Shown here piece by piece: positions 9,442-29,971 of a stretch of 64,000 bases of DNA. The translations under genes and the position numbers were made by a program. The stretch is from assembly GCA_016699795.1 (NCBI GenBank), contig CP065011.1:610474-674473 (forward strand). The letters are read 5' to 3'. The DNA is from Candidatus Moraniibacteriota bacterium (GTDB lineage: Bacteria; Patescibacteriota; Minisyncoccia; Moranbacterales; GCA-2747515). The stretch's first letter is position 1, and every line of letters starts with the position of its first letter. The notes below the pieces were generated by a model. The model saw only the letters and a program-made list of their open reading frames with translations, did no database searches and was not told the DNA's origin.

Positions 9442-12296
9442 ATGAGAATTTTTTCTTATAAAAAATCACATCTTCTCCCTACACTTTTCGGAATGTTCTT
9501 TGTTTTCTTTTTTCTTTCGAGTCAGGCTTGGGCAGCAACAGTCACACATGAGTGGGCAAAGCGGTTTGGGGGAGTGGGAAGTGATGGTGGTTTTAATATC
9601 ACTCTTGATTCTTCAGGAAATATATATGTTACAGGATGGATTACGGGCGATGTCGACTTAAATGACGATGGAGATTTCATTGATCCTTATGAATCAGGAA
9701 CAGGATTTGGTAGTAATGATATTTTTATTTCTGTCTTCACTTCCGAAGGCTCCCATCTCTGGGCTAAGCGATTGGGAGGAATCGGGAATGACAGTAGTTC
9801 TAGTATCACAATTAATTCCGCAGGAAATATACATATTACAGGATCTGTTACAGGAAATGCCGACTTAAACGGCGATGGAGATGTCACTGATCCCTATGAA
9901 TCAGGAATGGGATTTGGAAATCTCGATGTCTTTATTTCCGTCTTCACTTCCGAAGGCTCTCCCCTCTGGGCTAAGCGTTTAGGAGGGATAGATTCGGATA
10001 ATGGTAGTAAGATAACCCTTGACTTCTCAGGAAATGTATATATCACAGGACAAATTAGAAACAATGTTGACTTAAATGGCGATGGAGATTTCACCGATCC
10101 CTATGAATCAGGAATAGGATTTGGAAGTTGGGATGCTTTTATTTCCGTCTTCACTTCCGAAGGCTCTCATCTCTGGGCTAAGCGATTAGGAGGAGTAGGG
10201 CTTGATAATAGTTCTGGTATAACAATTAATTCCGCAGGAAATATACATATTACAGGATCTGTTACAGAAAATGCCGATTTAAATGGTGATGGAGATGTCA
10301 CCGATCCCTATGAATCAGGAGCAGGATTTGGTAATAATGATGCCTTTATTTCCATCTTCACTTCCGAAGGTTCCCATCTCTGGGCTAAACGGTTAGGAGG
10401 AGTGGGGAGTGATGGTGGCTCTGGTATCACAATGGATTCCGCAGGAAATATATATGTTACAGGATTAGTTACAGGAGATGTTGATTTAAACGGTGATGGA
10501 GATTTTACTGATCCCTATGAATCAGGAACAGGATTTGGTAGTAATGATATTTTTATTTCCATCTTCACTTCCGAAGGCTCTCATCTCTGGGCTAAGCGAT
10601 TAGGAGGAGTAGGGAATGATAGTAGTTCTTCTATAAATCTTGATTCTTCAGGAAATATATATTACAGGATATAGTACAGGAGATGTTGATTTAAATGGTG
10701 ATGGAGATTTTACTGATCTCTATGAATCAGGAACAGGATTTGGAGGACTTGATGCTTTTATTTCCACCTTCACTTCTGAAGGCACACATCTTTGGACAAA
10801 GCGTTTAGGAGGAACAGGGACTGATTGGATTCGTGGTACAACCCTTGATTCTTCAGGAAATATATATAGTACAGGATATGTTACAGGTGATGCTGATTTG
10901 AACGGTGATGGAGATTTTACCGATCCTTATGAATCAGGAACAGGATTTGGATTAGCTGACATTTTCCTCTCCGCCTTCTCTTACGACACCACTCCTCCCT
11001 CCCTCACTCTTACTCCCATCTCCACACCAACTTCAGACACTACATTTACCATAACAGGAACAACAACAGACACTCTCTCTGACATATACCAAGTCCACTA
11101 TCAAATAGACTCCACAGAAGGAGAATGGATTCCTTGTACTCCAGATGATTCTCTCTTTGATTCACCTTCCGAATCTTTCTCTTGTCCCGAACAAACCTTC
11201 CAAGAAGGTACGCATACCATATACATCAAAGCAACAGACAATGCTCTTTTGCAAAACGAAACACTACAATCTCTCACCTTCACCATAGACCTCACCTATC
11301 CCTCCCTCACTTAACCCTCTCCCAGAACTCACCAATGACTCCATCCTTACCCTCACAGGAAGAGTCAGAGACCAAGATGGAACCATACAATCAGTAGAAT
11401 ACCAAGTAAACTCCACAGACAATTCTTGGACACTCTGCCAAGCAACTGACAATACTTTCAATCAACAAGAAGAATCTTTCTCTTGTACCATAGAGAATCT
11501 CCAAGATGGATCTCACACTATATATATACGAGCCACAGACAATGTAGGAAACACAACGCAAATCACTACCTCCACTTCTGAACAAACTACCATAGATACC
11601 GAATCTCCTGATCTTGATCTCAAATCAAACATCACCCTCACTCTTAACGGAGGATCCAAAACAAACATAGAAGAAAACAAAACATTTTCTACAAGAAAAG
11701 AACGTCCTACACTTAAAGGAACAAACAAAGAAGCAAAGAATGGAATCATTACTATATATCAAAAAACATTCTTTGGATCAAAAAAAAGAATAGCTACTAT
11801 CTCTATAGATAAGAATGGAAAATGGAACTATTCTCTTCCAAAAAAAGAAAATGATTCCCGATACTATGCAATAAAGCTTACCGACCAAGCAAACAACGCA
11901 TCTGATATCTCAGATTGGTTTAAAGTTATCTATGACAAAACTCCTCCAACATTTACCACCACCCTCCCAGAAACTCTTACTGCACAAAGAGGAACCAGAA
12001 TAGATTTCCCTGCAACCGATGAACAAGAAGGACTCAAAGATCAATCAGGTATAGAAAAGTACCAAGTCAAACTCATAGGGTATCATAAAGATTGGATGCC
12101 TACTCCAGGAAAAAATGATCCTTTCTTCATTATCCCTGAAGCCGTTCCTTATGGAACCTACCCACTTGATATCAAAGTATCAGACAAAGCAGGAAATCAT
12201 ACCTATCATACGATTACGCTTACAAAACAAGAGGTAAAGGGAGTGGAGACAGAAAAAAAAAAGAAAATCAAAAAGAGAATCAAGAACAAGAAATGA
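9442..12296 (+). pseudogene. Disrupted paralog of the SBBP-repeat surface protein. Signal peptide, about 7 diverged SBBP beta-propeller repeats and Ig-like C-terminal domains; broken by two 2-bp deletions
   Basis: ORF 9442-10674 (frame 1) has repeats WAKRLGGxGxDxxxxITxDSxGNIYxTGxxTGxxDLNGDGDxTDPYESGxGFGxxDxFISxFTSEGSHL. It stops at NIYYRI* because 'atatatattacagga' at about 10650 lacks 2 nt relative to sibling repeats ('atatatatgttacagga'). ORF 10640-11314 continues in frame 2 and stops where 'ctcacttaaccct' at about 11308 lacks the 'gc' present in the paralog ('ctcacgcttaaccct', 14696). Frame 0 then stays open to 12296, encoding domains collinear with 14700-15616 of the intact paralog. Confidence 0.6.
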
Positions 12297-12721: not shown

Positions 12722-15616
12722 ATGCGTTTTTCAAAAAAAATATTCCAAAGTTTCTTTGTAAAGAATACTCAAATAATACATGCTATACCTATGATTTCTT
12801 TTTTTAAAAAAACATCGTATAAAAAAATATATCCACTTCCTGTATTCTTGGGAATGTTCTTTATTTTCTTTGCATTTTCTTTGGAAGTTCATGCTGGTTC
12901 GGTCACTCCCGAATGGGCGGAGCGGTTGGGTGGAGCGGGCTATGACTACGGCCTCTCCATCACCACCGACGCTGACGGTAATGTACTGGTCACAGGAAGT
13001 GTAAACGACACCGCCGACCTCAACGGCGACGGTGACACCACCGACCCCAATGAAACCACGGCATCACCCTATGGAGGCGACGACGCCTTCATCTCCGTCT
13101 TTGACGCCTCGGGTACCAATCTGTGGTATACGCGCCTTGGTGGAGCGGGCTATGACTACGGCTACTCCATCACCACCGACGCTGACGGTAATGTACTGGT
13201 CACAGGAAGTGTAAACGACACCGCCGACCTCAACGGCGACGGTGACACCACCGACCCCAATGAAACCACGGCATCACCCTATGGAGGCGACGACGCCTTC
13301 ATCTCCGTCTTTGACGCCTCGGGTACCAATCTGTGGTATACGCGCCTTGGTGGAGCGGGCTATGACTACGGCTACTCCATCACCACCGACGCTGACGGTA
13401 ATGTACTGGTCACAGGAAGTGTAAACGACACCGCCGACCTCAACGGCGACGGTGACACCACCGACCCCAATGAAACCACGGCATCACCCTATGGAGGCGA
13501 CGACGCCTTCATCTCCGTCTTTGACGCCTCGGGTACCAATCTGTGGTATACGCGCCTTGGTGGAGCGGGCTATGACTACGGCTACTCCATCACCACCGAC
13601 GCTGACGGTAATGTACTGGTCACAGGAAGTGTAAACGACACCGCCGACCTCAACGGCGACGGTGACACCACCGACCCCAATGAAACCACGGCATCACCCT
13701 ATGGAGGCGACGACGCCTTCATCTCCGTCTTTGACGCCTCGGGTACCAATCTGTGGTATACGCGCCTTGGTGGAGCGGGCTATGACTACGGCTACTCCAT
13801 CACCACCGACGCTGACGGTAATGTACTGGTCACAGGAAGTGTAAACGACACCGCCGACCTCAACGGCGACGGTGACACCACCGACCCCAATGAAACCACG
13901 GCATCACCCTATGGAGGCGACGACGCCTTCATCTCCGTCTTTGACGCCTCGGGTACCAATCTGTGGTATACGCGCCTTGGTGGAGCGGGCTATGACTACG
14001 GCTACTCCATCACCACCGACGCTGACGGTAATGTACTGGTCACAGGAAGTGTAAACGACACCGCCGACCTCAACGGCGACGGTGACACCACCGACCCCAA
14101 TGAAACCACGGCATCACCCTATGGAGGCGACGACGCCTTCATCTCCGTCTTTGACGCCTCGGGTACCAATCTGTGGTATACGCGCCTTGGTGGAGCGGGC
14201 TATGACTACGGCTACTCCATCACCACCGACGCTGACGGTAATGTACTGGTCACAGGAAGTGTAAACGACACCGCCGACCTCAACGGCGACGGTGACACCA
14301 CCGACCCCAATGAAACCACGGCATCACCCTATGGAGGCGACGACGCCTTCATCTCCGTCTTCTCCTACGACTTCACCCCTCCTGTACTTACGCTTGATTC
14401 TCCCTCTTCTCCCACCGGAGACTTCACTCCCACCATTACCGGAGTTGCTACTGACGCAAGAAATGCTCTAGCAAGCGTCGAGTACCAAGTAGACTCCACC
14501 TCCGGTTCTTGGAGTACTTGCACCGCAGACGACGGCACCTTTGACTCTTCCTCCGAAGCATTCTCTTGCCAAACCCAAGAACTCTCTGAAGGTACGCACA
14601 CCATATACCTACGATCAACAGATAGTGCAGACAATACCACCCAAGAAGGAGAAGAATCAGAAGTCTCTATTCAAATAGACCTCACCTATCCCTCCCTCAC
14701 GCTTAACCCTCTCCCTCCTCTTACCAATGATTCCACTCTTATTCTTACCGGAACAACAAAAGATACTGATGGAACTATCCAAAACGTAGAGTATCAACTC
14801 GACTCTCTCTCAGGATCATGGACTCCATGCACCTCAAACGATTCTCTCTTTGAAGAACAAGAAGAATCATTCACCTGCACCCTCACCAATCTCTCTGATG
14901 GAAACCACATCATATACATACGATCAACAGACAATGTAGGAAATAGTACAAGCATACAAACATCTCCTTCAGAAGATACTACTATAGATACAAAAGAACC
15001 TACCCTCGAACCAAAATCTCAAATCACTCTCGAACTCAAAGGAACAAAGAAAACAAACATAGAAGAAGGAGAAACCTTCTATACACAAAAAGAACGTCCC
15101 AAACTTAAAGGAAGGAATGAAGAAGCAAAGAATGGAACTGTCGTTGTGTATCAAAGAACCTATCTTGGAGCAAAAAGAAAAATAGCTACTGCACGTATAG
15201 ATAAAGATGGGAATTGGGAATACTCTCTCCCAAAAAAAGAAAATGATTCAAGACACTATGCTATCAAACTTATAGATGAAGCAGGAAATGAATCTGACAT
15301 CTCACAATGGTTTAAAGTAATCTATGATAGAAAAGCTCCAACCTTCAAAACAGAACTTCCAAAAACACAAAACGTAACAAGAGGAACAAGAATAGACTTT
15401 CCTGCAAAAGATAACTTCTCTGGTATAGACTCCTATCAAGTAAAACTCACTCCCTATCATAAAGAATGGAAAAAGATACCAAACAAAAAAGATTCTTTCT
15501 TCATCATCCCTGAATCTGTTTCAAATGGAATCTACACCCTTACTCTCAAAGTAACAGATAAAGCAGGGAATCGTCTTACTCATAGTATGACGGTTACTGT
15601 GGGGGATGGGAAGTAG
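12722..15616 (+). CDS. Large secreted SBBP (beta-propeller) repeat surface protein with C-terminal Ig-like domains; putative adhesin
   Basis: 964 aa. Signal peptide ...KKIYPLPVFLGMFFIFFAFSLEVHA (the true start may be the internal Met at 12791). Seven 70-aa repeats follow: WYTRLGGAGYDYGYSITTDADGNVLVTGSVNDTADLNGDGDTTDPNETTASPYGGDDAFISVFDASGTNL. Then two copies of an Ig-like module (LTLxxxxxPTxDxTxTITGxxTD...VEYQxDSxxGxWxxCTxxD..FDSxxExFSCxxxxLxxGxHxIYxRSTD) and further beta-sandwich domains. Collinear with the disrupted paralog at 9442-12296. Confidence 0.8.
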   Translation: MRFSKKIFQSFFVKNTQIIHAIPMISFFKKTSYKKIYPLPVFLGMFFIFFAFSLEVHAGSVTPEWAERLGGAGYDYGLSITTDADGNVLVTGSVNDTADLNGDGDTTDPNETTASPYGGDDAFISVFDASGTNLWYTRLGGAGYDYGYSITTDADGNVLVTGSVNDTADLNGDGDTTDPNETTASPYGGDDAFISVFDASGTNLWYTRLGGAGYDYGYSITTDADGNVLVTGSVNDTADLNGDGDTTDPNETTASPYGGDDAFISVFDASGTNLWYTRLGGAGYDYGYSITTDADGNVLVTGSVNDTADLNGDGDTTDPNETTASPYGGDDAFISVFDASGTNLWYTRLGGAGYDYGYSITTDADGNVLVTGSVNDTADLNGDGDTTDPNETTASPYGGDDAFISVFDASGTNLWYTRLGGAGYDYGYSITTDADGNVLVTGSVNDTADLNGDGDTTDPNETTASPYGGDDAFISVFDASGTNLWYTRLGGAGYDYGYSITTDADGNVLVTGSVNDTADLNGDGDTTDPNETTASPYGGDDAFISVFSYDFTPPVLTLDSPSSPTGDFTPTITGVATDARNALASVEYQVDSTSGSWSTCTADDGTFDSSSEAFSCQTQELSEGTHTIYLRSTDSADNTTQEGEESEVSIQIDLTYPSLTLNPLPPLTNDSTLILTGTTKDTDGTIQNVEYQLDSLSGSWTPCTSNDSLFEEQEESFTCTLTNLSDGNHIIYIRSTDNVGNSTSIQTSPSEDTTIDTKEPTLEPKSQITLELKGTKKTNIEEGETFYTQKERPKLKGRNEEAKNGTVVVYQRTYLGAKRKIATARIDKDGNWEYSLPKKENDSRHYAIKLIDEAGNESDISQWFKVIYDRKAPTFKTELPKTQNVTRGTRIDFPAKDNFSGIDSYQVKLTPYHKEWKKIPNKKDSFFIIPESVSNGIYTLTLKVTDKAGNRLTHSMTVTVGDGK
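12931..14358 (+). repeat. Perfect 210-bp tandem repeat array, about 6.8 units, ~58% GC, embedded in the SBBP gene
   Basis: Six identical alternate-frame 60-aa ORFs in the track (13032, 13242, 13452, 13662, 13872, 14082) show an exact 210-bp period. Units start at 12931, 13141, 13351, 13561, 13771, 13981 and 14191. Unit 1 differs by one codon (GLS vs GYS). The last unit is truncated near 14358. I counted 122/210 G+C in one unit. Confidence 0.9.
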
Positions 15617-15738
15617 GAGAGAATATTCTAAGCGGAAATATTTTCTACATGTATCTTAATTCTATTTTGTTTTTTATGAGAATATGGAGTATACTCGAAA
15701 AATAAGGTTAAGAAATGAATGAATGTGTAGATATTTTT

Positions 15739-16104
15739 ATGTCTAAATCGATAATTATTGTTGAAGATGAGATTTCAATAATGAAAGCAATGAGCATTAA
15801 ATTACAGAATGCCGGTTTTCAAGTTGAGGGCGCAAAAGAAGCGAATGAATTTTTTGAGAAAAAGGGAAAGAAGAAGTTCGATCTTATCTTATTAGATCTT
15901 ATGCTTCCAAAGATTTCAGGTTTTGAAGTATTGGAAAAATTAAGAAAGGAAAAAAATAAGGTTCCTGTTATGGTGGCATCGAATTTAAGCCAAGAAGAGG
16001 ACAAAAAACGAGCTCAAGACCTTGGCGCAGTGGATTATATTGTCAAATCGGACACATCACTTAATCAGATTGTTGAAAAAATACAATCTTTTTTAGAAAA
16101 ATAA
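15739..16104 (+). CDS. Stand-alone response-regulator receiver (CheY-like) domain protein
   Basis: MSKSIIIVEDE...FDLILLDLMLPKISGFEVLEKLRK...VPVMVASNLSQEE...GAVDYIVK. The phospho-acceptor Asp (LLDLMLP), the T/S and the K are in canonical positions. Start taken at the Met at 15739 within ORF 15715. No output domain. First gene of the pilus cluster. Confidence 0.8.
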   Translation: MSKSIIIVEDEISIMKAMSIKLQNAGFQVEGAKEANEFFEKKGKKKFDLILLDLMLPKISGFEVLEKLRKEKNKVPVMVASNLSQEEDKKRAQDLGAVDYIVKSDTSLNQIVEKIQSFLEK

Positions 16105-16132
16105 AATAAGTTCTAAGAAATAAAATAAAGAA

Positions 16133-17779
16133 ATGGCTATCAATGAAAAAGATATCCTTGATATCGTATTACGAGAAGGATATGTCTCACAAGAGGATTT
16201 TGATAAGGCTCTTCATAGAGAAAAAAAAGGAAATGCATCTGCCTTAGATTATTTGTTAGAGAATAATGTTTTAAGTTTGGATTTGGTTGGTCAGGCCATG
16301 GCTGAGTATTACGGAGTTCCTTATGCGGATTTGAATACCAATGAAGTAAGTTCAGAACAGGTATTAAGAATTCCAGAAAAAATGGCAAAAAAGCTTAATG
16401 CTGTACTCTATAAGGAAACGAATGATTCTGTGGTAATCGCAACGAGCGATCCGAGTAATCCTGAAATTAAGGAAAAATTAGTATGGATTTTTAATACAAA
16501 AAAAATAAAACTTGCATACTCAATGTATGTAGATATTGAGAAGGCTTTCTCTTATTATAAAGAGAATTTAGCAGATCGCTTTACAAATATCATTCAATCG
16601 GAAAATAAAGTTGCTCCAGAAATGGTACTGGAAATTTTAAAAGATGCGCTTAATAGAAGTGCTTCTGATGTTCATTTTGAACCAATGAAAGAAAAGGTAA
16701 GTATTCGTTTTCGTGTGGACGGAGTCCTTCAAGAGGTTGGCGAAGTAACACCACAGTATTATCAAAATATTATAAATCATCTTAAAATAAGCGCTTCTCT
16801 TAAAATTGATGAACATAAGACGACTCAAGATGGCGCACTTCATTTTTATATCAATAAAACAGAATTGAATTTGAGAATCTCAATCGTTCCTATTGTGGAA
16901 GGAGAAAAAATCGTACTAAGAATTCTTTCGAGACAAAGTAGTAGTCTTGGCTTAGAAAATCTTGGTCTTTCACAAAAAGATCAAGAAATATTTGAGACTA
17001 CGATCAGAAGGCCTTTTGGAATGATTATTATTAGTGGTCCGACAGGTTCAGGAAAGAGTACAACATTATATTCTTTACTTACAAAAATAAATAATTCTGA
17101 AATAAATATAACTTCTATTGAAGATCCTGTTGAATACATTATTCACGGAGCAAATCAAATTCAAGTTAATCTTGATTCTAATATCACCTTTGCTCGGGGA
17201 CTTCGATCTATTGTTCGTCAAGATCCCGATGTTATTTTTGTAGGAGAAATTCGTGATTCGGAGACAGCGGATATCTCTGTTAATGCAGCACTTACGGGAC
17301 ATTTTCTTTTTTCAACATTTCATGCGAATAATGCTGAATCCACCTTTCTTCGATTGATGGATATGGGTGTTGAGAGATTTTTGTTAGCATCAACATTGAA
17401 TCTTGTTGTCTCACAAAGATTGCTTCGAAAACTTTGTGAAAAGTGTCGCTATAGTAAAGAAGTTACTTCAGAATACGCATCTCAATTTCCTGTAGAATTT
17501 TCTAAATATCTCAAGGGACTAAAAAATATTTATCAAGGAAAGGGGTGCTCTGTTTGTCGAGGAACTGGATATAAAGGACGTATAGCGGCCTTTCAATTAA
17601 TTCAAGTAACTCCAGAAATCCAAACACTTATATTGCGAAGTGCTACTTCGCAAGAAATTTGGGATGTAGCAAAAAAACAGGGAGCAAGATCTCTTTTTGA
17701 AGATGCTCAAGATAAAGCTAATTTGGGAATTACGAGTTATGAGGAAATTTTTAGGGTAACACCTCCAACTGTTGAGTAA
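16133..17779 (+). CDS. pilB: Type IV pilus assembly ATPase PilB (GspE-family)
   Basis: 548 aa. GSPII_E N-terminal domain. Walker A GPTGSGKSTTLYS. Asp/His boxes. Tetracysteine Zn motif CEKCRYS...CSVCRGTGYKGR. Confidence 0.95.
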   Translation: MAINEKDILDIVLREGYVSQEDFDKALHREKKGNASALDYLLENNVLSLDLVGQAMAEYYGVPYADLNTNEVSSEQVLRIPEKMAKKLNAVLYKETNDSVVIATSDPSNPEIKEKLVWIFNTKKIKLAYSMYVDIEKAFSYYKENLADRFTNIIQSENKVAPEMVLEILKDALNRSASDVHFEPMKEKVSIRFRVDGVLQEVGEVTPQYYQNIINHLKISASLKIDEHKTTQDGALHFYINKTELNLRISIVPIVEGEKIVLRILSRQSSSLGLENLGLSQKDQEIFETTIRRPFGMIIISGPTGSGKSTTLYSLLTKINNSEINITSIEDPVEYIIHGANQIQVNLDSNITFARGLRSIVRQDPDVIFVGEIRDSETADISVNAALTGHFLFSTFHANNAESTFLRLMDMGVERFLLASTLNLVVSQRLLRKLCEKCRYSKEVTSEYASQFPVEFSKYLKGLKNIYQGKGCSVCRGTGYKGRIAAFQLIQVTPEIQTLILRSATSQEIWDVAKKQGARSLFEDAQDKANLGITSYEEIFRVTPPTVE

Positions 17780-17787
17780 AATACATA

Positions 17788-18888
17788 GTGAGTATGAAAA
17801 ATGAAAAAAAAATTCCTCGTTGGTTATCTCCATTTTTGTATTTTGGATTGCAAAATAAGGCATACGAATTTATAGAAAATTTGTCATATTTTCTTTCAGC
17901 AGGACTTTCTCTTTCCGAGGCTTTGGAATCACTCAAAGAAGAAACATCTTCAAAGAGAATGAAGAAAATCATTGTAAAAATAAAAGAAGCTATTGACTCT
18001 GGAGAAATGCTATCAACTTCGTTAACGCAACAAAATTTTTTCGAAGAAGATATAATAGAAATTATTCATGCGGGAGAATTATCTGGGAATCTTGTCAATA
18101 ATCTCAAACTAGTAGTACTTCTTCATGATAAAGATCGAAAATTAAAAGCAAAAATCAATTCCTCACTTTTATATGGAGGAATTATTCTTGTTGCTACCAT
18201 GATAGGTGGTGTGGGGACTGCATGGTTTTCGTTACCACAAATTGCCAAAGTATATGCTGATATGAATGTAGAACTTCCAATGTTGACTCGTATACTCGTT
18301 CAATTTGGTGTTTTTGTTTCAAAATATGGATATATATTTTTCCCAATATTTTTTCTTATTGTGGCTTCGATGTTTTATTTCTTATTTAGCTTTCCAAAAA
18401 CGAAATTTATCGGAAATATTTTTTTGTTTCATATCCCTTTCGTGAAAAAACTTATTCAGCAAAGTGAGGTAACTCGATTTGGGTATCTTATGGGAAATAT
18501 TTCTCAATCAGGATTATCCATAAATCGCGCATTTCAGATTATGGTAGGAGCGACAACTTTTGATAATTATAAAAAACTCTATGAATTTATCGCAGGGAAA
18601 GTAACGGAAGGCATCTCTATTTCGGAGAGTTTTAAAATGTACCCAAAATCAAAAAAACTTATCCCTTCAAGTGTATTGCAAATGCTAACTTCTGCAGAAA
18701 AAACAGGAAAACTTTCAGAGACATTCTTTCGTATTAGTGATCTTTATGAATTAAAATTGGAAAATACCTCAAGAAATTTACCTATTATTATCGAGCCACT
18801 CCTTTTGATTCTCATGGGATTAGGTGTGGTTATCTTCATACTTGCAACTATGCTACCAATTTATAATCTTACAAATATTATTAAATGA
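17788..18888 (+). CDS. pilC: Type IV pilus inner-membrane platform protein PilC (GspF-family)
   Basis: 366 aa with two T2SSF-like halves and three TM segments. Immediately follows pilB. Its stop overlaps the next gene's start (ATGA). Confidence 0.85.
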   Translation: MSMKNEKKIPRWLSPFLYFGLQNKAYEFIENLSYFLSAGLSLSEALESLKEETSSKRMKKIIVKIKEAIDSGEMLSTSLTQQNFFEEDIIEIIHAGELSGNLVNNLKLVVLLHDKDRKLKAKINSSLLYGGIILVATMIGGVGTAWFSLPQIAKVYADMNVELPMLTRILVQFGVFVSKYGYIFFPIFFLIVASMFYFLFSFPKTKFIGNIFLFHIPFVKKLIQQSEVTRFGYLMGNISQSGLSINRAFQIMVGATTFDNYKKLYEFIAGKVTEGISISESFKMYPKSKKLIPSSVLQMLTSAEKTGKLSETFFRISDLYELKLENTSRNLPIIIEPLLLILMGLGVVIFILATMLPIYNLTNIIK

Positions 18889-19337
18889 GAAATTATTTTT
18901 TTAAAAAGGAAGAAAAAGGAATTTCATTGATAGAGGTTTTGACAGTAATGGCTGTTATTGGAATTTTCGCAAGTATAGGTGTGAGTGGATTTTTTTCTTT
19001 TAAAAAAGGAAATGATTTTCTTCTTTCCATAGAACAGGCAAATAATACTATTAGATTAGCGAGAATGAAGGCTTTAAATGGTAATAATGATGATGATTGG
19101 GGGGTTCATATTACTGCGAGTCAAATACTTGTTTTTAAGGGAAATGATTTCATCAATCGAAATATTTCTTATGATGAAGTCGTTAGCCTTTCGGAAGTAG
19201 CGAGCGTTTCAGGTCTTACGCAAATTATTTTTTCTAAAATGAGTGGTCTTCCTTCAGATGTGGGTGTAATATATTTTAATGATGGGAATCAAAATAAAAG
19301 TATAGAAATCAATGAAAAAGGAATGGTTATTAAATAG
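18885..19337 (+). CDS. Prepilin-type N-terminal cleavage/methylation domain protein (GspH/FimT-like minor pilin)
   Basis: MRNYFFKKEEKG|ISLIEVLTVMAVIGIFASIG has the class III signal (G-hydrophobic-x-x-x-E). 150 aa. Confidence 0.7.
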   Translation: MRNYFFKKEEKGISLIEVLTVMAVIGIFASIGVSGFFSFKKGNDFLLSIEQANNTIRLARMKALNGNNDDDWGVHITASQILVFKGNDFINRNISYDEVVSLSEVASVSGLTQIIFSKMSGLPSDVGVIYFNDGNQNKSIEINEKGMVIK

Positions 19338-21048
19338 AAAAGGATTTAGCGTTGTTGAAGCTGTTGTTGCTACGGCAATTTTTTCTATTATAGTTGCTTC
19401 TATAATGACGAGTATTTTTTCTACCAATAGAATAGTTTTTTTCTCTGGAGAAAAATCACGAGCAACATTTCTTGCTGAAGAAGGCTTGGAAGCTACAAAA
19501 AGTATACGGGATAAGGATTTTGAAAATTTAATTGATGGTACGTATGGGCTGGATACACAGGGTGGGGAATGGATATTTAGCGGAAGTCAGGATATACAAG
19601 ATATTTTTACAAGAAGTATTACCATTTCCTCTTTGAATGAAAATACTAAGAAGGTACAATCGACTATACAATGGACTCAGGATTCGGAAGAGAAAATAGT
19701 GACATTAGAAAGTCGTTTGACGAATTGGAAAATTTCAAAAATGCAAACGAATCGAGGAATGCTCGTTTTTGGAGATGGGGGAACAACTTCAGATTCGATA
19801 AAATATCGCATGTATGAAGAAGAAAGTGGCACGTGGGGTTCAGTCGCCTCTCTTGCTGATATTGATCAAACAACAACGAATAAAGCTTTGCGAACAGCTC
19901 GCGTCTATGCTTCAGAGGATCGTGATGAATATATTGCTATTTCCAGACATTTTAATGGAACACAACAATCTATTTATGCGCAGGTATATAATGGTTCTTC
20001 TTGGGGGAATGTGCAATTACTTTCTAGTTGGAATGCGAATACGTTTTTGTATGCACAAAATTATGATGGAGTTTATTTGAGTAATGGAGATTTTGTGGTA
20101 ATCTACAGTGATTTTACCAATACACCAAAATTTCGAGTGTGGAATGGAACTTCATGGGGAGTACAAGTTTCAATGAAAACAGCTTCAACATATCCAAATT
20201 TTGTAGTCGCGAAGGCGAGGCCGGAGACAAAAGAAATTATGGTTGCCTTTACGGGACAAAATAGGCGTGTTTTCACACAATATTTTAATGGAGGATCGTA
20301 TACTACAACAAGTTGGACATACCTCCAGCATACTACGAGTGGTGTTGCTAATACCGTTCGATTAGCAGATTTTTCTTGGAGTCCAGAAAATACTTCTGTG
20401 GGTGCTATGGTGTATTCTGAAGGAACGACAAGATACATCTCTGTAAAAGTATTTACTGCCAATGGAAGTGGTGGTGGGGCATGGTCTTCTCGTGTGAATA
20501 GTCCAACGCAAAGTAATAGTTCTATGAATGTCATGATACAAGGGCGAGAAGGAGCAAATCAATTTATGACTTGTTATAAAGATAATAAAAATCCACAGCA
20601 ATTTCTTTGTTTTGAGGTGAATAGTTTTACACCCACAATAGCTACGCCAACGAATAATATAATAACAACTACAGCAGTGAGTGCTACGGGGGTTTTTGGT
20701 TTAGATTTTAATTATGCACCTAATGGTCTTTCTGGAGTCGTTGTCTATTCTGATAATACGGCTATACCAAAAATGAGAACATATAATCCATCATCTCATA
20801 TATTTAGCTCAGCCATTTCTTTGCCGTCCTTAGGAAATACGGTGTATACGAATAAAATTATTGTTAATCCAGATTCTGAAGAAGCGATGTTTCTTTTTGG
20901 GGGCAGTAACAGAAGCCTTTATTCTATAGCTTTTGATTCGGTAAGCGGCACTGTCTACACAACGCCTGCTGGAAAAGCTTTGAATACACAAGGAACTAAT
21001 GGATCAGCAAATACGGATCAGTGGTATGACTTTGTGTGGAAAAAATAG
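19312..21048 (+). CDS. Large (578-aa) pilin-like protein: prepilin N-terminus with a big C-terminal globular domain
   Basis: MKKEWLLNRKG|FSVVEAVVATAIFSIIVASIM prepilin motif, then about 540 aa of a Ser/Thr/Asn-rich beta-rich domain. Overlaps the previous gene by 26 bp. Confidence 0.65.
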   Translation: MKKEWLLNRKGFSVVEAVVATAIFSIIVASIMTSIFSTNRIVFFSGEKSRATFLAEEGLEATKSIRDKDFENLIDGTYGLDTQGGEWIFSGSQDIQDIFTRSITISSLNENTKKVQSTIQWTQDSEEKIVTLESRLTNWKISKMQTNRGMLVFGDGGTTSDSIKYRMYEEESGTWGSVASLADIDQTTTNKALRTARVYASEDRDEYIAISRHFNGTQQSIYAQVYNGSSWGNVQLLSSWNANTFLYAQNYDGVYLSNGDFVVIYSDFTNTPKFRVWNGTSWGVQVSMKTASTYPNFVVAKARPETKEIMVAFTGQNRRVFTQYFNGGSYTTTSWTYLQHTTSGVANTVRLADFSWSPENTSVGAMVYSEGTTRYISVKVFTANGSGGGAWSSRVNSPTQSNSSMNVMIQGREGANQFMTCYKDNKNPQQFLCFEVNSFTPTIATPTNNIITTTAVSATGVFGLDFNYAPNGLSGVVVYSDNTAIPKMRTYNPSSHIFSSAISLPSLGNTVYTNKIIVNPDSEEAMFLFGGSNRSLYSIAFDSVSGTVYTTPAGKALNTQGTNGSANTDQWYDFVWKK

Positions 21049-21058
21049 TTATAAGGAT

Positions 21059-21568
21059 ATGATGAAAATATTTTGCCATAATAAAAAAGGAATATCATTG
21101 ATAGAATTACTTATATACATTGCTATAATGGGTATACTTTTAACGTCTATAGTTTCATTTATTACTGTGAATGAAAATATGAAAAAAAGAAATCAAGCGA
21201 TTTCAGAAGTAGAAATTCAAGGTTGGGAAGCAATGCGCTTTATAACAAAATCTATCAAGAATGCACAGAGCATTACAGGTCCTATTTTTGGTGAAAATTC
21301 AGCCGTGCTTACTCTCGTTGTGGACGATGTGACTAAGAGTCCTACAATCTTTGATTTGAATGCTGGTGCTTTGCGAATAAAAGAAGGACTTTCTGATCCT
21401 GTTACTCTTACGGATTCTCGAATGATTGTGGACACACTCTCTTTTACTAATTTTGGATCAAGCACAACAAAGGGAAGTATAAAAATACAGTTTAATGGAA
21501 GCTATTTCGATACAAGTGAAAATACTGATTATCAAAAAACATTTTATGGAACAGCAACCCCGAGGTAA
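21059..21568 (+). CDS. Prepilin-type pseudopilin
   Basis: Start taken at MMKIFCHNKKG|ISLIELLIYIAIMGILL (internal Met of ORF 20999, just after the upstream stop at 21048). Classic G-x-x-x-x-E prepilin motif. Confidence 0.65.
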   Translation: MMKIFCHNKKGISLIELLIYIAIMGILLTSIVSFITVNENMKKRNQAISEVEIQGWEAMRFITKSIKNAQSITGPIFGENSAVLTLVVDDVTKSPTIFDLNAGALRIKEGLSDPVTLTDSRMIVDTLSFTNFGSSTTKGSIKIQFNGSYFDTSENTDYQKTFYGTATPR

Positions 21569-21968: not shown

Positions 21969-23252
21969 ATGAAAAGAGATTTTTTAAAAAAAATGAAAAT
22001 AGGAACGAAACTGATTCTTTTTATGCTTCTTTCGAGCATAACTATATTGAGTATTTTTTATTTTTTTGGAAATAATTTTCAACGCGAAATATTATACTGG
22101 GAAGCACATAGAAAAGTAAGTATTTTAAAGAAAAGATTTTCTAGTTTGGAACAGACAAATATCAAAAACTTATCTATGGGTTTGGAAATTTTTTCTGAAA
22201 ATTCTGAAATAAAAAATAGTTTTCTCGAAAAAGATCGTGAAAAATTATATACTTCAGTAGCCCCACTATTCAAAGGACTTAAAGAGCGATATGCTTTAAC
22301 GCATTTATATTTTCATCTCCCGGACAGAACAGTTTTTTTACGTTTACACGACAAGTCATTATTTGGGGATGAAGTAAAGAGAAAAACACTTCTGAACGCA
22401 GAAAAAACGAAAGAAATTAGTTCTGGGCTAGAATTAGGAAAAACAGCTTTCGCACTTCGATCAGTCATTCCTTATTATGATAAGGATCAATTGATTGGCT
22501 ATTTGGAATTTGGAAAGGAAATAGATGAATTCTTGGATATTTTGAAACAAGAAGTTGGAGATGATTTTGTCTTTTTGGGAAAGAAAGAGCTGATGGAAAG
22601 ATCTGAATGGGAAAAAACAATGTCTTTGAAAGATGTATCTTCTCGTTGGGATGATAATGAAACTTATGTTTTTTTGGGAAGTACTAATAAGGATACCCAC
22701 TCTTCTTGTTCTCGTTTTATAGATTTTTCTTCTACGGAAGATGAATTTGTAGGGAATGAAATTGTGACTGAGGGAGAAAAAAAATACCAATGCTCAGGTT
22801 TTTCAGTATATGATTTTGAAAAAGAAAGAACGGGAATAATTCTTTTAAAAAGTGATGTTTCTGAAACTTTAGCTTTTGGAGATAAACAGATTCTTTCCCT
22901 CGTTCTTTTTTCAGGTGGAATATTTTTTACTTTCCTTATTCTTTTTGAGATTGTAGTTTGGAGAATAATTACTTCTCCTTTGCATAGACTTCTTATTTCT
23001 ATTCAAAAAGTAACTCAAAATTCAAGGAAACAAAAAATAAATATCGAATCAGGCTATGAAGTCGGAAAAATTTCTTCCGCATTTAATGAAATGATAGAGG
23101 TAGTAGAAAATGCTCGAGAAAACTTGGAAGAAAAGGTATTGAGTCGAACTGAAGAGTTGGAGAAAGTAAATAAATTTATGATAGGTCGTGAGTTAAGAAT
23201 GATCGAACTTAAAAAAGAAATAAACAGATTAAAAAAAGAAAAAGAATTTTAA
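21969..23252 (+). CDS. Membrane sensor protein: N-terminal TM, periplasmic Cache-like domain, TM, HAMP, signalling helix; no output domain
   Basis: 427 aa. TM1 LILFMLLSSITILSIFYFF. Extracytoplasmic domain with HLYFHLPDRTVFLRLHD...IGYLEFGKEID (Cache/dCache-like). TM2 LVLFSGGIFFTFLILFEIVVW. HAMP (RIITSPLHRLLISIQKV...ISSAFNEMIEVVE). S-helix EEKVLSRTEELEKVNKFMIGRELRMIELKKEI. Then the stop. Confidence 0.6.
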   Translation: MKRDFLKKMKIGTKLILFMLLSSITILSIFYFFGNNFQREILYWEAHRKVSILKKRFSSLEQTNIKNLSMGLEIFSENSEIKNSFLEKDREKLYTSVAPLFKGLKERYALTHLYFHLPDRTVFLRLHDKSLFGDEVKRKTLLNAEKTKEISSGLELGKTAFALRSVIPYYDKDQLIGYLEFGKEIDEFLDILKQEVGDDFVFLGKKELMERSEWEKTMSLKDVSSRWDDNETYVFLGSTNKDTHSSCSRFIDFSSTEDEFVGNEIVTEGEKKYQCSGFSVYDFEKERTGIILLKSDVSETLAFGDKQILSLVLFSGGIFFTFLILFEIVVWRIITSPLHRLLISIQKVTQNSRKQKINIESGYEVGKISSAFNEMIEVVENARENLEEKVLSRTEELEKVNKFMIGRELRMIELKKEINRLKKEKEF

Positions 23253-23256
23253 TTGC

Positions 23257-25452
23257 ATGACAATGAAAAAAGAAATTTCTCATATTATTTTTTTCTCAGG
23301 ACTTTTTACTCTTATTGTTGTAGGTTTTTTCATAAATATATATTTTGAGAAATCAACAGAAAAAACTCTTCGAGAAGAATTGACCCGATTGAGTGAAGTT
23401 GTTAATTTGACCGTAGATTCGAAAAAAATAGCTTCTCTAGAGGGGAATTTAGAGGATGAAAAAAATGAAGAATATCTTCATTTGAGGAAACAATTCCTTC
23501 TTGTCGGAGAGGCTTTAAAAAAGTTTGATATCAGATGGATTTATTTTCTTAGAAAAGAAGGAGAATCCTGGATTTTTTTGGTAGATTCTATCGAAACAGA
23601 ATCTTCTGATCATGCTTTTCCTGGAGAAGTCTACATAGATTATCCCAAAGAAATAGATTTAGTAGCAAAGAGATATGAATCATTGGTGGCGGGTCCATAT
23701 ACAGATCCATGGGGAATATTTATTTCTTCTTTTATTCCTGTTAAAGATTTTGAAACTGGAGAGTCGATTGGTGTTTTGGGCCTTGATATTGACGCAGATG
23801 TTTGGCAAGAAAAAATTACAAAAGCACAAATCTTTCCAAGCGTAGTAATAGGGACTCTTATTCTTTTTTGGATTTCTTTCTTTTTATATCGTCAAAAACG
23901 ATCACAAAATGAAAAGAAAATTTCTATAAGAGACTTGCAATTAGAGTCTGTGACAAAAAACATTCAGGATGTGGTATATCGAGTGAATCAAGAGGGTATA
24001 ATAACGTATATTTCTCCAGCTGTGGAGGCTATGTTTGGATTTTCTCCAGAAGAAATAGAAGGGAAAAGTATTGATTTTCTTCTTTTTCCTGAAATAAAAA
24101 AGGAAGAGGAAGAAAGATTTTGGCAATCATTTCAAGAAAAAAATGATAGTTTAATGAATATTTTATTGCGTCATAAAAATGGAGAGATGAGAGAAGTGGA
24201 AATTTCTGGAGTATTTATTCAAGAGAAAGAATCTATAATTGAATTTCAAGGAATAATTCATGATGTAACGAAAGAAAAAAGAATTAATCAAAAAATAGAA
24301 GCACAAACGGAAAATTTGAAAAATTCTCAAAAAGCACTTCTTAATGTTTTGGAGGATATTGAAATAGAAAAAGAAAAAATGGAGCAAGAAAAAGATAAAT
24401 TAGATGCTATTTTGTATAGTATTGGAGACGGCGTGTTTGTCGTGGATCGTCATCTTAAAATAGTTATGGTGAATAATATGGTTTCTACATTGACGGGTTA
24501 TTCTAATGAAGAGCTTCTTTTGAATGAAGTTTATTTTGAAAGGATGAAATTTATATCAGATGATAATGAGATGAAAAGAGATACGTTTGTAGAAGATGTA
24601 ATACAAACAGGGGAAGAGAAAAAAATGATGGAGCATACAGCACTGATTCAGAAAAATGGAAATAGAATGCCTGTAGCTGATAGTGCCTCACCTTTAAAAA
24701 ATAAAAAAGGAGAAGTGATTGGTTGTGTCGTTGTGTTTCGAGATGCTACAAAAGAGCGTGAAATAAATAGAATGAAGTCAGAATTTGTTTCGGTAGCATC
24801 GCACCAATTAAGAACACCTCTGACAAGTATAAAATGGTTTGCAGAACTTCTTCTTGATGAAAGTAATGTAAATTTAACCAATGAGCAGAAGGAATATGCC
24901 AAAGAAATCTATGAGGGAAATGAGCGTCTTATTGATTTAGTAAACGATCTTTTAAATGTTTCTAGAATTGAAACAGGGAAAAATTTTGTAGTAGAAATGA
25001 AAAAAACAGACATAGTTGAAATTGTAAGAGATGTGGTAAAGAAACAAATTCCGAGCGCAAAAGAAAAAAATATTACTATCGTTTTAGATGAAGAAATTCC
25101 TGAAGTCTTGCTATTGGATATTGATGGGGTTAAAATAGAACAAGTTTTCCAGAATCTTTTGAGTAATGCTATCAAATATTCTCTAGAAAACAGTGAAGTG
25201 CGATTTGGTTTCTTGGAGGAAGATCGTTCGGTATGTTTTTCTGTGAAAGACTCTGGAATAGGCATTCCTGATGATCAGAAAAAACATATGTTTGAGAAAT
25301 TTTTTCGAGCAAGTAATGTTATTATGACGGAAGCACAGGGAACTGGATTGGGCCTGTATATAGCAAAGTCAATTATTGAGGGGCACGGAGGGGAGATTTG
25401 GTTTGAATCAAGTGAGAAGGGAACAACATTTTTTATTCGTTTACAAAAATAG
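23257..25452 (+). CDS. Sensor histidine kinase (periplasmic sensor domain, 2 TM, two PAS domains, HisKA, HATPase_c)
   Basis: 731 aa. PAS (ITYISPAVEAMFGFSPEEIEGKSIDFL). PAS (ILYSIGDGVFVVDRHLKIVMVNNMVSTLTGYSNEELL). H-box EFVSVASHQLRTPLTSI. N box QNLLSNAIKYS. G boxes DSGIGIP and GTGLGLYIAK. Confidence 0.85.
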   Translation: MTMKKEISHIIFFSGLFTLIVVGFFINIYFEKSTEKTLREELTRLSEVVNLTVDSKKIASLEGNLEDEKNEEYLHLRKQFLLVGEALKKFDIRWIYFLRKEGESWIFLVDSIETESSDHAFPGEVYIDYPKEIDLVAKRYESLVAGPYTDPWGIFISSFIPVKDFETGESIGVLGLDIDADVWQEKITKAQIFPSVVIGTLILFWISFFLYRQKRSQNEKKISIRDLQLESVTKNIQDVVYRVNQEGIITYISPAVEAMFGFSPEEIEGKSIDFLLFPEIKKEEEERFWQSFQEKNDSLMNILLRHKNGEMREVEISGVFIQEKESIIEFQGIIHDVTKEKRINQKIEAQTENLKNSQKALLNVLEDIEIEKEKMEQEKDKLDAILYSIGDGVFVVDRHLKIVMVNNMVSTLTGYSNEELLLNEVYFERMKFISDDNEMKRDTFVEDVIQTGEEKKMMEHTALIQKNGNRMPVADSASPLKNKKGEVIGCVVVFRDATKEREINRMKSEFVSVASHQLRTPLTSIKWFAELLLDESNVNLTNEQKEYAKEIYEGNERLIDLVNDLLNVSRIETGKNFVVEMKKTDIVEIVRDVVKKQIPSAKEKNITIVLDEEIPEVLLLDIDGVKIEQVFQNLLSNAIKYSLENSEVRFGFLEEDRSVCFSVKDSGIGIPDDQKKHMFEKFFRASNVIMTEAQGTGLGLYIAKSIIEGHGGEIWFESSEKGTTFFIRLQK

Positions 25453-29146: not shown

Positions 29147-29971
29147 ATGGTGTGGAAATATATTCTTTTTTCTTTGGGAATTGGTGTTTTGAGTATTTTT
29201 TTGTTCGAATATTTTTTTCAAAAAGATGTTGAAAAAACAACTATCGATTCTTTAGATCTTTTTTTCAAACCAAAAAATACTATTGGTCCGTATCCTTCAA
29301 AAATTATAAATCTTTCCAATTGGAAAATAACACTTCCTATCGGGACGGAAAAAAAGCCAAAATATCCTTTGGAAATTCGTCAGCCAGAACTCAATGAATA
29401 TCGATTAGATCCTTGGTTTTCTCTTACTCCTGAAAAAGACGGAGTTGTTTTCCGTGCTCCAGTAAATGCTCCAACAACAGGGAATACGAAATACGCTCGA
29501 TCTGAATTGAGAGAAATGAAAGATGGGGGAAAAAACTCTGCGAGTTGGTCTTCAACCGAAGGAAAACATACAATGATTCTTGATCAGGCTGTTACGGCTA
29601 TCCCAAAAGTTAAACAGCATGTAGTAGCAGGTCAAATCCATGACTCAGAAGATGATGTTATTGTGATTCGTTTAGAGTATCCTAATTTATATGTAAATGT
29701 TGACGGGGAGAACGAATATGTTTTAGATGCGAATTACACATTAGGAAAAAGATTTACTGTGAAGTTTGTTGCGGAGAAAGGAAAAACTTCGATTTATTAT
29801 AATAAACAAGATGATCCTGTATATGTATTAGATCTTGATTATTCCGAGGCTTATTTTAAGGCGGGTGTTTATACACAGTCAAATTGTAAAACGGAAGAAG
29901 ATAAAAAATATTGTCAGAGTGATAACTATGGCGAAGTGATTCTTTATAATGTAGAAGTTATTCATATATAG
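29147..29971 (+). CDS. Polysaccharide lyase family 7-like protein (alginate-lyase signature) with an N-terminal TM anchor
   Basis: 274 aa. N-terminal anchor MVWKYILFSLGIGVLSIFLF. All three PL7 signature blocks are present in order: YARSELREM (R-[ST]-E-L-R), AGQIHD (Q-I-H) and YFKAGVYTQ (Y-F-K-A-G-x-Y-x-Q). Confidence 0.65.
   Translation: MVWKYILFSLGIGVLSIFLFEYFFQKDVEKTTIDSLDLFFKPKNTIGPYPSKIINLSNWKITLPIGTEKKPKYPLEIRQPELNEYRLDPWFSLTPEKDGVVFRAPVNAPTTGNTKYARSELREMKDGGKNSASWSSTEGKHTMILDQAVTAIPKVKQHVVAGQIHDSEDDVIVIRLEYPNLYVNVDGENEYVLDANYTLGKRFTVKFVAEKGKTSIYYNKQDDPVYVLDLDYSEAYFKAGVYTQSNCKTEEDKKYCQSDNYGEVILYNVEVIHI

Follow-up and report, generated by a model that had tools for sequence, protein, structure and literature searches.

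A homogenized SBBP-type β-propeller array of deviant base composition in a surface protein gene of a Candidatus Moraniibacteriota bacterium

The propeller gene, its repeat array and its relatives in the genome

The stretch of DNA analyzed here as a whole, a window of 64 kb, carries a gene for a secreted protein of 941 aa (gene B; 12791..15616, on the plus strand, like all of the features described below), recognized from its open reading frame and Pfam matches and combining an SBBP propeller with an Ig-like stalk. Its product is 100% identical over all 941 aa to NCBI entry QQS60844.1 (P0001), from a 1.19-Mb contig of Candidatus Moraniibacteriota, a lineage of the candidate phyla radiation (CPR); an alternative start at an upstream ATG (12722) would yield a protein of 964 aa. 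The reading frame is unbroken over 2.8 kb. The Pfam SBBP model (PF06739) matches it in seven stretches with 135.4 bits (cutoff, 20.5), and Big_13 and Y_Y_Y are found as further domains. At the N terminus lies an AT-rich signal peptide (12791..12892; GC3 of about 0.17 to 0.27), delimited by its composition and by alignment with an upstream paralog (paralog A), which ends in ...SLEVHA/GS and, going by the AXA rule, is predicted to be cleaved after SLEVHA. It contains a 20-nt block, GGAATGTTCTTT[A/G]TTTTCTT, from which paralog A differs at the single A/G position only. Next comes a unique strand, GSVTPEWAERL (12893..12928), defined by its sequence, by its alignment with ATVTHEWAKRF of paralog A and by a strand in the structural model (E3-14); it is a diverged copy of the last strand of the blade, closes the ring and is already GC rich. 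Downstream of the propeller, the first Ig-like domain (Ig1; 14362..14700), delimited by composition and by a short repeat family (D8), has at its end a 26-nt block, ATAGACCTCACCTATCCCTCCCTCAC (14675-14700), which paralog A shares without a mismatch, and further Ig-like modules defined by protein comparison with two other family members (P0002 and P0008; see below) make up the C terminus (14701..15616).

The propeller is encoded by a tandem array of SBBP blades with a DLNGDGD loop (12929..14361), identified by Tandem Repeats Finder (period of 210, 6.82 copies, 99% matches and 0 indels) and by base-by-base comparison. One 210-bp unit corresponds to one 70-aa SBBP blade. Units 2 to 6 (13139-14188) are 100% identical in DNA, the partial unit 7 has the same sequence up to 14361, and unit 1 differs from the others by 2 nt in one codon (12953..12954), the sole variant within the array, where it has CTC (Leu) and the others have TAC (Tyr); bases accordingly equal those 210 positions further on throughout 12929-12952 and 12955-14151. 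Both the perfect identity and the copy number are those of the deposited assembly. The description of about 6.8 near-identical 210-bp units with one codon changed in the first, given by the initial annotation, is borne out by this comparison, and the perfect identity points, as was also claimed there, to a very recent amplification or gene conversion of the kind documented for β-propellers (PMC9218822). An overlapping second gene behind the array was considered and rejected, as we found no ORF of at least 80 aa overlapping 12929-14361 in any other frame or strand. The array is real coding sequence: it specifies a propeller domain of seven blades in a surface protein that is secreted. An AlphaFold model of this region (pLDDT, 91.3; pTM, 0.91) contains 28 strands, i.e., seven times four, and predicts a closed seven-bladed SBBP-type β-propeller at the N terminus of the Sec-secreted protein. 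The neighbors of the array in the window include copper-handling and type IV pilus genes; we found no mobility genes near the array and no tRNAs in the 64-kb window, and promoter and terminator scans gave counts at or below the shuffled expectation. The domain probably serves as a head for multivalent binding or adhesion, likely dependent on Ca, and is encoded beside a type IV pilus cluster.

Paralog A (9442..12296), traced through its ORFs and by tblastn across three frames, likewise has a signal peptide, seven SBBP blades and Ig-like modules. It had been described earlier as a paralog of the same SBBP type with AT-rich, mutually diverged units; that account of its repeats holds, but it is actually a pseudogene with two 2-bp frameshifts, one a deletion that turned (AT)5 into (AT)4 at about 10655-10662 and the other a loss of GC between 11310 and 11311. 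An alternative genetic code was rejected as an explanation of its stops, since the breaks are 2-bp deletions and other genes read through in table 11. Tandem Repeats Finder and unit comparison place its blade array at 9553..10951 (6.8 copies of 207 bp), with units that are 74 to 86% mutually identical and a 414-bp superperiod; its GC content is 0.40 to 0.43, and its GC3 is 0.22 to 0.33.

Two more members of the family lie elsewhere in the genome, P0002 (QQS61403.1) and P0008 (QQS61606.1). The C-terminal module of gene B, counted from IDLTYPSLT, is shared with P0002 at 311/311 aa (100%), and its GC3 is 0.27; P0008 is identical to gene B over 69 aa and then continues in an out-of-frame tail. P0002 also holds three identical segments. 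Short conserved DNA blocks are found at domain borders, namely, in the signal peptide (family D7) and between Ig1 and Ig2 (family D8). Given the frameshifted neighbor, the 100% identical modules in dispersed members and these conserved border blocks, gene B is a member of a recombining gene family with fast decay and turnover.

Base composition and codon choice

The unit contains 123 G+C in 210 nt (0.586), and unit 1 has a GC content of 0.590. The initial annotation had counted 122/210 against roughly one-third in the flanking genes; the count is corrected here, and the contrast stands, as the window has 0.29 to 0.36 per 2 kb. The array has a GC3 of 0.67 (C3, 0.57; G3, 0.10), whereas that of 28 long background ORFs is 0.17 to 0.27; at a rate of 0.22, a GC3 of 47/70 or more would arise with a probability of 8e-16. 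The log-likelihood of the synonymous choices in the unit lies 8.7 SD under that of 1228 background windows of 70 codons (z = -8.7). From the amino acids of the unit, a GC content of 0.422 and a GC3 of 0.21 would be expected, against the 0.586 and 0.67 observed, and the amino acid composition of the blade is hardly shifted. The GC excess of the array is almost entirely synonymous, mostly a matter of third-position T to C.

The GC-rich zone exceeds the array, with a sharp onset at about 12893, in the region of signal peptide cleavage, and a stepwise drop across Ig1 to about 14930. Its 5' border lies about 20 nt downstream of the signal peptide DNA block conserved with paralog A. Ig1 of gene B is intermediate (GC3, 0.44; C3, 0.40; G3, 0.04). 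The proportion C/(C+T) at third positions, given here for 2/3-fold and then for 4-fold codons, forms a graded series from.13/.16 in background plus-strand genes through.20/.47 in the propeller of paralog A,.46-.49/.36-.43 in the C-terminal modules and.59-.69/.57-.58 in Ig1 of A and B to.72/.79 in the gene B unit. Even in the AT-rich pseudogene, Ig1 shares this style, as across the two paralogs Asp is encoded by GAC in 7/10 and 9/11 cases, Phe by TTC and Leu by CTC. Hence, the earlier statement that the codon usage of the array is foreign to the window agrees with the difference in GC3 but has to be qualified in that the C-ending style is also that of Ig1 in both paralogs; the array is the extreme of a codon style also present in their Ig domains. 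The style is kept in A and B although their DNA is only about 65 to 80% identical in the domains compared (Ig1 and others). At residues conserved with paralog A, T3 has given way to C3 at 11 of 14 columns and A3 to G3 at 0 of 9 (Fisher p = 3e-4). The unit further contains codons that are rare in native genes (CTG twice, CGC, ACG twice, GCG and TCG), and G-ending codons in four-fold boxes amount to 6/14, against 0.06 to 0.16 in the rest of the family. The copying of one blade over a whole propeller is a known kind of event; what is unusual is the compositional deviance, in that the amplified blade relies on C-ending codons, which are seldom used elsewhere in this AT-rich genome.

The search for a source and the history of the array

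We searched 1.84 billion representatives, standing for about 15 billion proteins, exhaustively with HMMER and recovered no propeller more than 58% identical; outside the source genome, a word-indexed search of 5.8 billion clusters did not turn up a closer relative either. Among external proteins, P0072, encoded on a contig of 47% GC, has the best-matching single blade (63% identical), and within the genome it is blade 2 of P0002 (61%). With gene B as the query, a search of genome contigs gave a single hit, a distant locus from Saccharibacteria (51% GC) at 46% identity, and a metagenome scan with the blade alignment returned six distant loci, an earlier first scan having given no match. The closest relatives are on CPR-like-looking contigs of 42 to 51% GC or within the source genome. 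Blades of the SBBP type that carry the DLNGDGD loop are also present on two contigs of 59 to 63% GC, of which one (L013, 59% GC) is only 41% identical and the other (L014) matches only in a 20-residue motif. The log-likelihood of the unit is -1.09 under the codon usage of L013, -1.11 under that of the P0072 gene, -1.13 under that of the flanks of a third locus (L009, 55% GC) and -1.87 under that of the native plus-strand genes; a codon table from the Ig1 domains of the family gives -1.15. Relatives of 47 to 59% GC therefore fit the unit about equally well, and its codon choice suggests a moderately GC-richer, rather than a high-GC, source.

On the basis of these observations, we tentatively prefer, at slightly less than an even chance, a history in which gene B is a mosaic: its propeller segment came in by recombination, from a homolog moderately richer in GC, before its blades were homogenized. 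The segment would have entered gene B through homologous recombination with such a homolog, over a tract lying somewhere between the conserved signal peptide block and the Ig domains. One 70-residue blade has spread over the whole ring, by tandem amplification or intragenic gene conversion, with only the ring-closing N-terminal strand staying distinct, and in the mosaic history this step follows the import; it is recent enough to have left blades 2 to 7 identical in nucleotides and blade 1 one codon off. We infer the import and this order of events, and we prefer the mosaic history because the array combines a synonymous GC richness with a codon style that fits the 47 to 59% GC relatives of the same blade subfamily. 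The rare native codons and the G-ending four-fold codons of the unit also argue for import, as does the sharp 5' compositional border near the conserved signal peptide block. Against it stand the lack of a donor, the best external blade being no better than the one in P0002, and the barely moved amino acid composition. The borders of the segment are in-frame homologous blocks, and mobility features are absent around it, which also argues against import. The asymmetry between T-to-C and A-to-G changes is something that a plain GC-rich origin would not predict, and the deviant codon usage recurs, though less marked, in the Ig domains of the paralogs. The source of the blade may moreover lie within the genome itself, P0002 and P0008 having been compared as proteins.

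This graded C-ending style across the whole family, the Ig1 of an AT-rich pseudogene included, suggests a family-intrinsic force, and a serious rival, which we consider possible but rather unlikely, is that a native blade had its third positions pushed from T to C by such a force, with the array as its extreme. Selection for a C-ending, G-poor coding strand in an abundantly expressed surface protein could provide the force, as could a strand-biased repair linked to the homogenizing recombination. Such a shift would account for the graded series, for the persistence of the style in A and B despite their divergence and for the asymmetry at conserved columns; the Ig1 codon table accounts for the unit nearly as well as does the best foreign one, and the closest blade is equally likely to be in the genome or foreign. 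Arguing against it are the unshifted signal peptide of the same gene, the G-ending and rare codons (CTG, CGC, ACG and GCG), avoided in the rest of the family, and the lack of the style in other genes of the window, pilin-like ones included. To our knowledge, there is no mechanism that acts on a single gene family only. Classical translational selection is downgraded as a cause, as its "fold rule" of C-ending codons in two-fold and U-ending codons in four-fold sets (PMC3424539) is broken by the 0.72 and 0.79 of the unit; the window holds 0 ribosomal or EF-Tu genes. GC-biased gene conversion, by which mismatches within the array would have been resolved in favor of G/C until it became GC rich in place, would fit the coincidence of the highest homogenization with the highest GC content (100% identity and a GC3 of 0.67 in B against 74 to 86% and 0.22 to 0.33 in A) and the somewhat raised G-ending codons, and it is known from homogenized repeats elsewhere, e.g., X-chromosome palindromes (PMC8981503). 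We regard it as very improbable and reject it mainly on the observed asymmetry, since it acts on base pairs and A-to-G changes should match those from T to C; further, the 311-aa module lately exchanged between gene B and P0002 is not GC rich, the Ig1 domains are C rich though unrepeated, and in paralog A the more similar pairs of units do not have a higher GC content.

Least probable of all, and barely credible to us, is a direct and recent transfer out of a distant lineage of truly high GC content (>60%), the stronger form of import put forward in the initial annotation. The GC3 of the array, its CTG and CGC codons and the DLNGDGD-loop blades on the 59 to 63% GC contigs could be cited for it; nevertheless, no such donor was found, those blades are remote, the G3 of the unit is 0.10 against 0.25 to 0.28 in high-GC homologs, and the closest relatives, the architecture and both junctions are typical of the family. 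An origin in assembly or polishing, which we think improbable, would mean that repeat collapse or expansion, multimapping short-read polishing or a chimeric join gave rise to the copy number, the perfect identity or, in a strong form, the GC-rich insert as such. A perfect 1.4-kb array can be laid out by long reads only, and the lone variant at 12953-54 sits 25 nt from unique flank, where reads can anchor; the accession series and the circular-MAG type of the assembly resemble those of Nanopore assemblies with Illumina polishing through Racon. A pipeline of that kind is described in PMC8012365, and the same caveat on nucleotide-identical propellers is voiced in PMC9218822. The frame of gene B is nonetheless intact throughout, GC-rich reads, at about 60% identity to an AT-rich original, would have been unable to convert it into the array by polishing, and an in-frame 1.5-kb chimera with two junctions is very unlikely with long reads. 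As both borders are in frame and align with paralog A codon for codon, and as the fold is closed by exactly seven blades and a closing strand, as in paralog A (pLDDT of 91), a chimeric assembly is unlikely; short-read polishing may have inflated the perfect identity by erasing small differences between units.

Comparison with known repetitive and recombining systems

Highly repetitive β-propellers have been catalogued in 9,919 proteins, some of them nucleotide identical (Pereira & Lupas 2022, PMC9218822), and recently amplified ones, including WRAP, were described by Afanasieva et al. (2019, PMC6805158). In recently amplified propellers, the first strand is distinct, and they often have relatives disrupted by frameshifts (PMC9218822). 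The array of gene B resembles them in its DNA-identical blades and in a blade number usual for the fold, in a ring-closing first strand that the amplification left out and that has a conserved counterpart in paralog A and in the frameshifts of the neighboring and paralogous copies, which suggest rapid turnover. Unlike that set, it is of the SBBP type and from a CPR bacterium, and its blade deviates in composition; neither SBBP nor the terms "GC content" and "gene conversion" occur in the text of PMC9218822, a study that contains no analysis of composition. The array adds an SBBP-type CPR example to the catalogued propellers whose blades have only just been amplified and illustrates that a freshly amplified array can be compositionally out of step with the host genome. 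For the annotation of CPR genomes, it is a warning that an apparent GC island may sit inside a single native-looking gene and that a neighboring "paralog" may be a pseudogene. Should the C-ending style be endogenous, the family would offer a compact system in which to study how local forces shape base composition in reduced genomes; should it be imported, it would document mosaicism at the domain level among surface proteins of episymbiotic bacteria.

Mosaic families of surface protein genes are maintained by gene conversion in Neisseria (pilE/pilS) and Borrelia (vls). Like these, the family of gene B has conserved 5' and 3' blocks around a variable middle, several paralogs, 100% identical modules in dispersed copies and a defective copy beside an intact one. 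In contrast to them, the defective paralog A has its own start codon and signal peptide and looks like a decaying full-length gene rather than a promoterless cassette, and the variable part is a whole propeller domain in a family known here from its sequence. One could conceive, although we hold this reading as a whole to be improbable, that the SBBP/Ig family is a recombination-driven variable-surface system in which modules swap between intact and defective copies, blades are repeatedly reamplified and either the exchange or selection on the transcript recodes third positions from T to C. It would then point to a local strand-asymmetric compositional force undescribed in bacteria, of which the 210-bp array would be the freshest product.

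In the PDB, the best match to the predicted propeller is the C-terminal propeller of CylK (PDB 7RON and 7FH6), which also has seven blades (TM score of 0.66 to 0.68, with about 480 aligned columns that are 22% identical). CylK, a Friedel-Crafts alkylating enzyme from cyanobacteria, has diverged blades and carries an additional domain at its N terminus, and the comparison with gene B is one of fold only; gene B, unlike CylK, has a signal peptide and an Ig-like stalk, which suggest a binding role. Also among the top structural matches are the designed propellers Cake8 and Cake9 (PDB 6TJG and 6TJH), which have identical blades like those of gene B but are artificial, with shorter blades of a different sequence family.

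The amplified propeller of gene B

Gene B (12791 to 15616, + strand) codes for a secreted SBBP propeller protein with an Ig-like stalk. Its ORF, with the NCBI start at 12791, is intact and contains the array, and its 941-aa product has the same sequence as QQS60844.1 ([quoted passage not shown]) from a 1,186,598-bp contig. Pfam searches identified seven SBBP repeats followed by Ig-like domains of the Big_13 and Y_Y_Y types. Tandem Repeats Finder recovered a single array (12929 to 14361) with a period of 210 bp, 6.8 copies, 99% matches, and no indels. Base-by-base comparison revealed that units 2 to 6 are identical, as is the partial unit 7 up to 14361, with the sole deviation being TAC>CTC at 12953-12954 in unit 1. 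The array is real, and the initial annotation described it correctly as near-identical 210-bp units with one codon differing in the first. The units are also GC-rich (~58%) as claimed there, although we count 123 rather than 122 G+C among the 210 bases (0.586).

Each unit corresponds to one 70-aa blade. An AlphaFold model of the residues encoded by 12893-14424 (pLDDT 91.3, pTM 0.91) has 28 strands arranged as seven four-stranded blades, and the closest solved structure is the seven-bladed CylK propeller (TM 0.66-0.68). The unique segment preceding the array (12893-12928; GSVTPEWAERL) corresponds to the last strand of the blade in diverged form, and the last array unit stops short of that strand, as is usual where a propeller ring closes. 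Every blade carries a DLNGDGD loop, predicted to bind calcium by analogy with such loops in other propellers.

The identical blades fall in a known class: Pereira and Lupas described 9,919 proteins with nearly or fully identical blades across propeller lineages, noting complete nucleotide identity of the blades in some cases, with an assembly warning for those (PMC9218822). In their recently amplified propellers the amplified region does not include the first strand, and many relatives of highly repetitive propellers are disrupted by frameshifts. Gene B shows every feature of this class that can be tested, and its distinct ring-closing first strand reproduces the layout of the recently amplified members. 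That study neither mentions SBBP nor analyzes base composition. The compositional oddity of the array is likewise genuine.

Outside 10-16 kb, the GC content of the window is 0.29-0.36 per 2 kb. GC at third codon positions (GC3) is 0.67 in the array versus 0.17-0.27 in 28 long background ORFs, and the third bases of a unit comprise 40 C, 14 T, 9 A, and 7 G. Codon usage foreign to the rest of the window had been claimed earlier, and the log-likelihood of the synonymous choice in the unit lies 8.7 SD below the background of 1228 70-codon windows. Its amino acids combined with the codon usage of the window predict a GC of 0.42 and a GC3 of just 0.21, far below those observed; hence, the excess is almost wholly synonymous. 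The GC-rich zone exceeds the array, with an abrupt onset at ~12893, directly after the signal peptide, and a stepwise drop over the next domain that reaches background by ~14930.

Members of the SBBP/Ig family

The upstream paralog A (9442-12296, + strand) shares the architecture of gene B and likewise has seven blades. It is a pseudogene whose frame is broken by two separate 2-bp deletions, namely, an (AT)5>(AT)4 slip at ~10655-10662 and, between 11310 and 11311, the loss of the GC found at 14701-14702 of gene B. Gene B can still be aligned with each of the three frame segments. As the initial annotation had observed, its units are AT-rich and mutually diverged: the 207-bp blades have a GC of 0.40-0.43 and are 74-86% identical to each other. 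The array of paralog A (9597-10950) displays a 414-bp (two-blade) super-period besides the blade period, and blade pairs 2/4 and 1/5 are 86% identical versus ~77-79% for most other pairs, a pattern that indicates older partial duplications or conversions within this array. Paralog A is flanked by a 23-nt inverted repeat (9366-9388/12282-12304; 87% complementary), one arm of which lies shortly before the start and the other in the stop region; given the AT-rich DNA, this match may have arisen by chance.

Two further members are encoded elsewhere in the genome. P0002 (QQS61403.1) has six blades rather than the seven of paralog A and gene B, with an identical 39-residue segment common to three of them, and its last 311 residues are identical to gene B. 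P0008 (QQS61606.1) combines a PQQ-like propeller with the signal peptide of the family; it matches gene B exactly over the 69 residues that follow IDLTYPSLT, where an out-of-frame tail, SPISLMETTSYTYDLQTM, begins, on account of which it is probably a further frameshifted copy. Paralog A (11285-11310) and gene B (14675-14700) share an identical 26-nt block, ATAGACCTCACCTATCCCTCCCTCAC, at the border of the first (Ig1) and second Ig-like domains. Its position coincides exactly with the point at which the gene B protein becomes 100% identical to P0002 and P0008, which makes the block a candidate recombination junction. A second block common to the two paralogs lies in the signal peptide. The family swaps modules and loses members through frameshifts.

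Origin of the GC-rich composition

Among 5.8 billion clusters, a word-indexed search found no close donor outside the source genome (at most 49% identity), and an exhaustive HMMER search of 1.84 billion representatives retrieved relatives of at most 58% identity over the propeller. The search for a high-GC donor proposed initially thus yielded no close relative at the protein level: the best single-blade match (63%) is P0072, a protein from a 2.9-kb contig of 47% GC. Within the genome, the best blade match is blade 2 of P0002 (61%), and the blades of paralog A are 49-54% identical to that of gene B. Homologues on metagenome contigs of 59-63% GC are weak, one (L013) being 41% identical and another (L014) sharing only a 20-residue motif. 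The codon fit of the unit is about equal under the tables of a 59% GC contig (-1.09), the P0072 gene (-1.11), a 55% GC contig (-1.13), and the Ig1 domains of both paralogs (-1.15; 14362-14700 in gene B), and is poor under native genes (-1.59 to -1.87).

At columns conserved with paralog A, T>C is seen in 11/14 and A>G in 0/9 (p = 3e-4). GC-biased gene conversion would treat both changes alike and does not fit this asymmetry; moreover, the C-terminal module is not GC-rich despite its recent exchange. With the exception of the signal peptides, a graded C-ending style pervades the family: C/(C+T) in two/threefold and fourfold codons, respectively, is.13/.16 in the background,.20/.47 in the propeller of paralog A, ~.47/.40 in the C-terminal modules, ~.64/.58 in Ig1 of both paralogs, and.72/.79 in the gene B unit. 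Aspartate is encoded by GAC in 7/10 and 9/11 cases in the two Ig1 domains versus 11% in the background. Raised G-ending codons occur in the unit alone (6/14 of fourfold boxes), which also uses CTG, CGC, ACG, and GCG. Classical translational selection favors C-ending codons in twofold and U-ending codons in fourfold boxes (PMC3424539), and in the unit both are C-ending; the ribosomal, EF-Tu, and tRNA genes that would define optimal codons are absent from the 64-kb window.

In the rest of the window, G exceeds C at third positions (G3 and C3) in + strand genes (0.11 versus 0.08) and C exceeds G in - strand genes (0.15 versus 0.05), suggesting that + is the leading strand in this region. The two SBBP paralogs, although on + themselves, show the reverse, with C3 clearly higher than G3, and the region 10.8-15.6 kb has a negative GC skew; it looks as if the family evolved in, or was copied from, the opposite orientation.

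The dichotomy posed initially, a high-GC donor or an artifact, is too narrow. We tentatively favor a scenario in which the propeller segment would have been imported through homologous recombination with a moderately GC-richer homologue, after which the blades would have been homogenized. The codon fit of the unit to its nearest external relatives, its rare GC codons, the sharp 5' composition border, which begins ~20 nt past a conserved block, and the evident module exchange within the family argue for such an import. An endogenous, family-specific codon shift, which we consider a serious though less likely rival, would account for the graded C-ending style in both paralogs and the restriction of the change to T>C at conserved residues, and is consistent with native and foreign blades tying in identity. 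The least convincing version is one in which a lineage of truly high GC was the donor, given the G3 of just 0.10 in the unit and the remoteness of the high-GC homologues.

As for assembly, a chimeric join is an unlikely source of the GC-rich insert: the 2.8-kb frame is intact, both array borders align with paralog A, and the product forms a seven-bladed ring that closes exactly, as in that paralog. The source assembly may have been built from Nanopore reads and polished with Illumina reads, a pipeline described in PMC8012365. If so, multi-mapping short reads could have erased a few unit-specific differences, and polishing may have inflated the perfection of the blade identity. Only one variant is left, 25 nt from the unique flank. 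Polishing is unlikely to have created the composition, because GC-rich reads would share only ~60% identity with an AT-rich original and would fail to map there.

Genomic neighborhood

Copper-handling genes lie upstream of the SBBP genes. Directly after gene B (15715-21568) come a stand-alone response regulator gene, genes for a PilB-like ATPase and a PilC-like protein, and several pilin-like ORFs. Two large ORFs, 19312-21048 (578 aa) and 25947-28844 (965 aa), have raised second-position GC (0.43-0.45) and no Pfam match at E <= 1e-5. Beyond the pilus genes are a dCache/HAMP protein and a PAS histidine kinase (21969-25452). At 29147-32218, an alginate-lyase-2 family protein adjoins a 698-aa PF09826 "Beta_propel" protein, a further secreted-looking propeller with native AT-rich codon usage. 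Carotenoid-type and light-related genes also occur in this 1.19-Mb candidate phyla radiation genome, namely, those for a squalene/phytoene synthase, two amine-oxidase/phytoene-desaturase-like proteins, and a DNA photolyase (37802-40227, 45670-47220, and 58671-60029).
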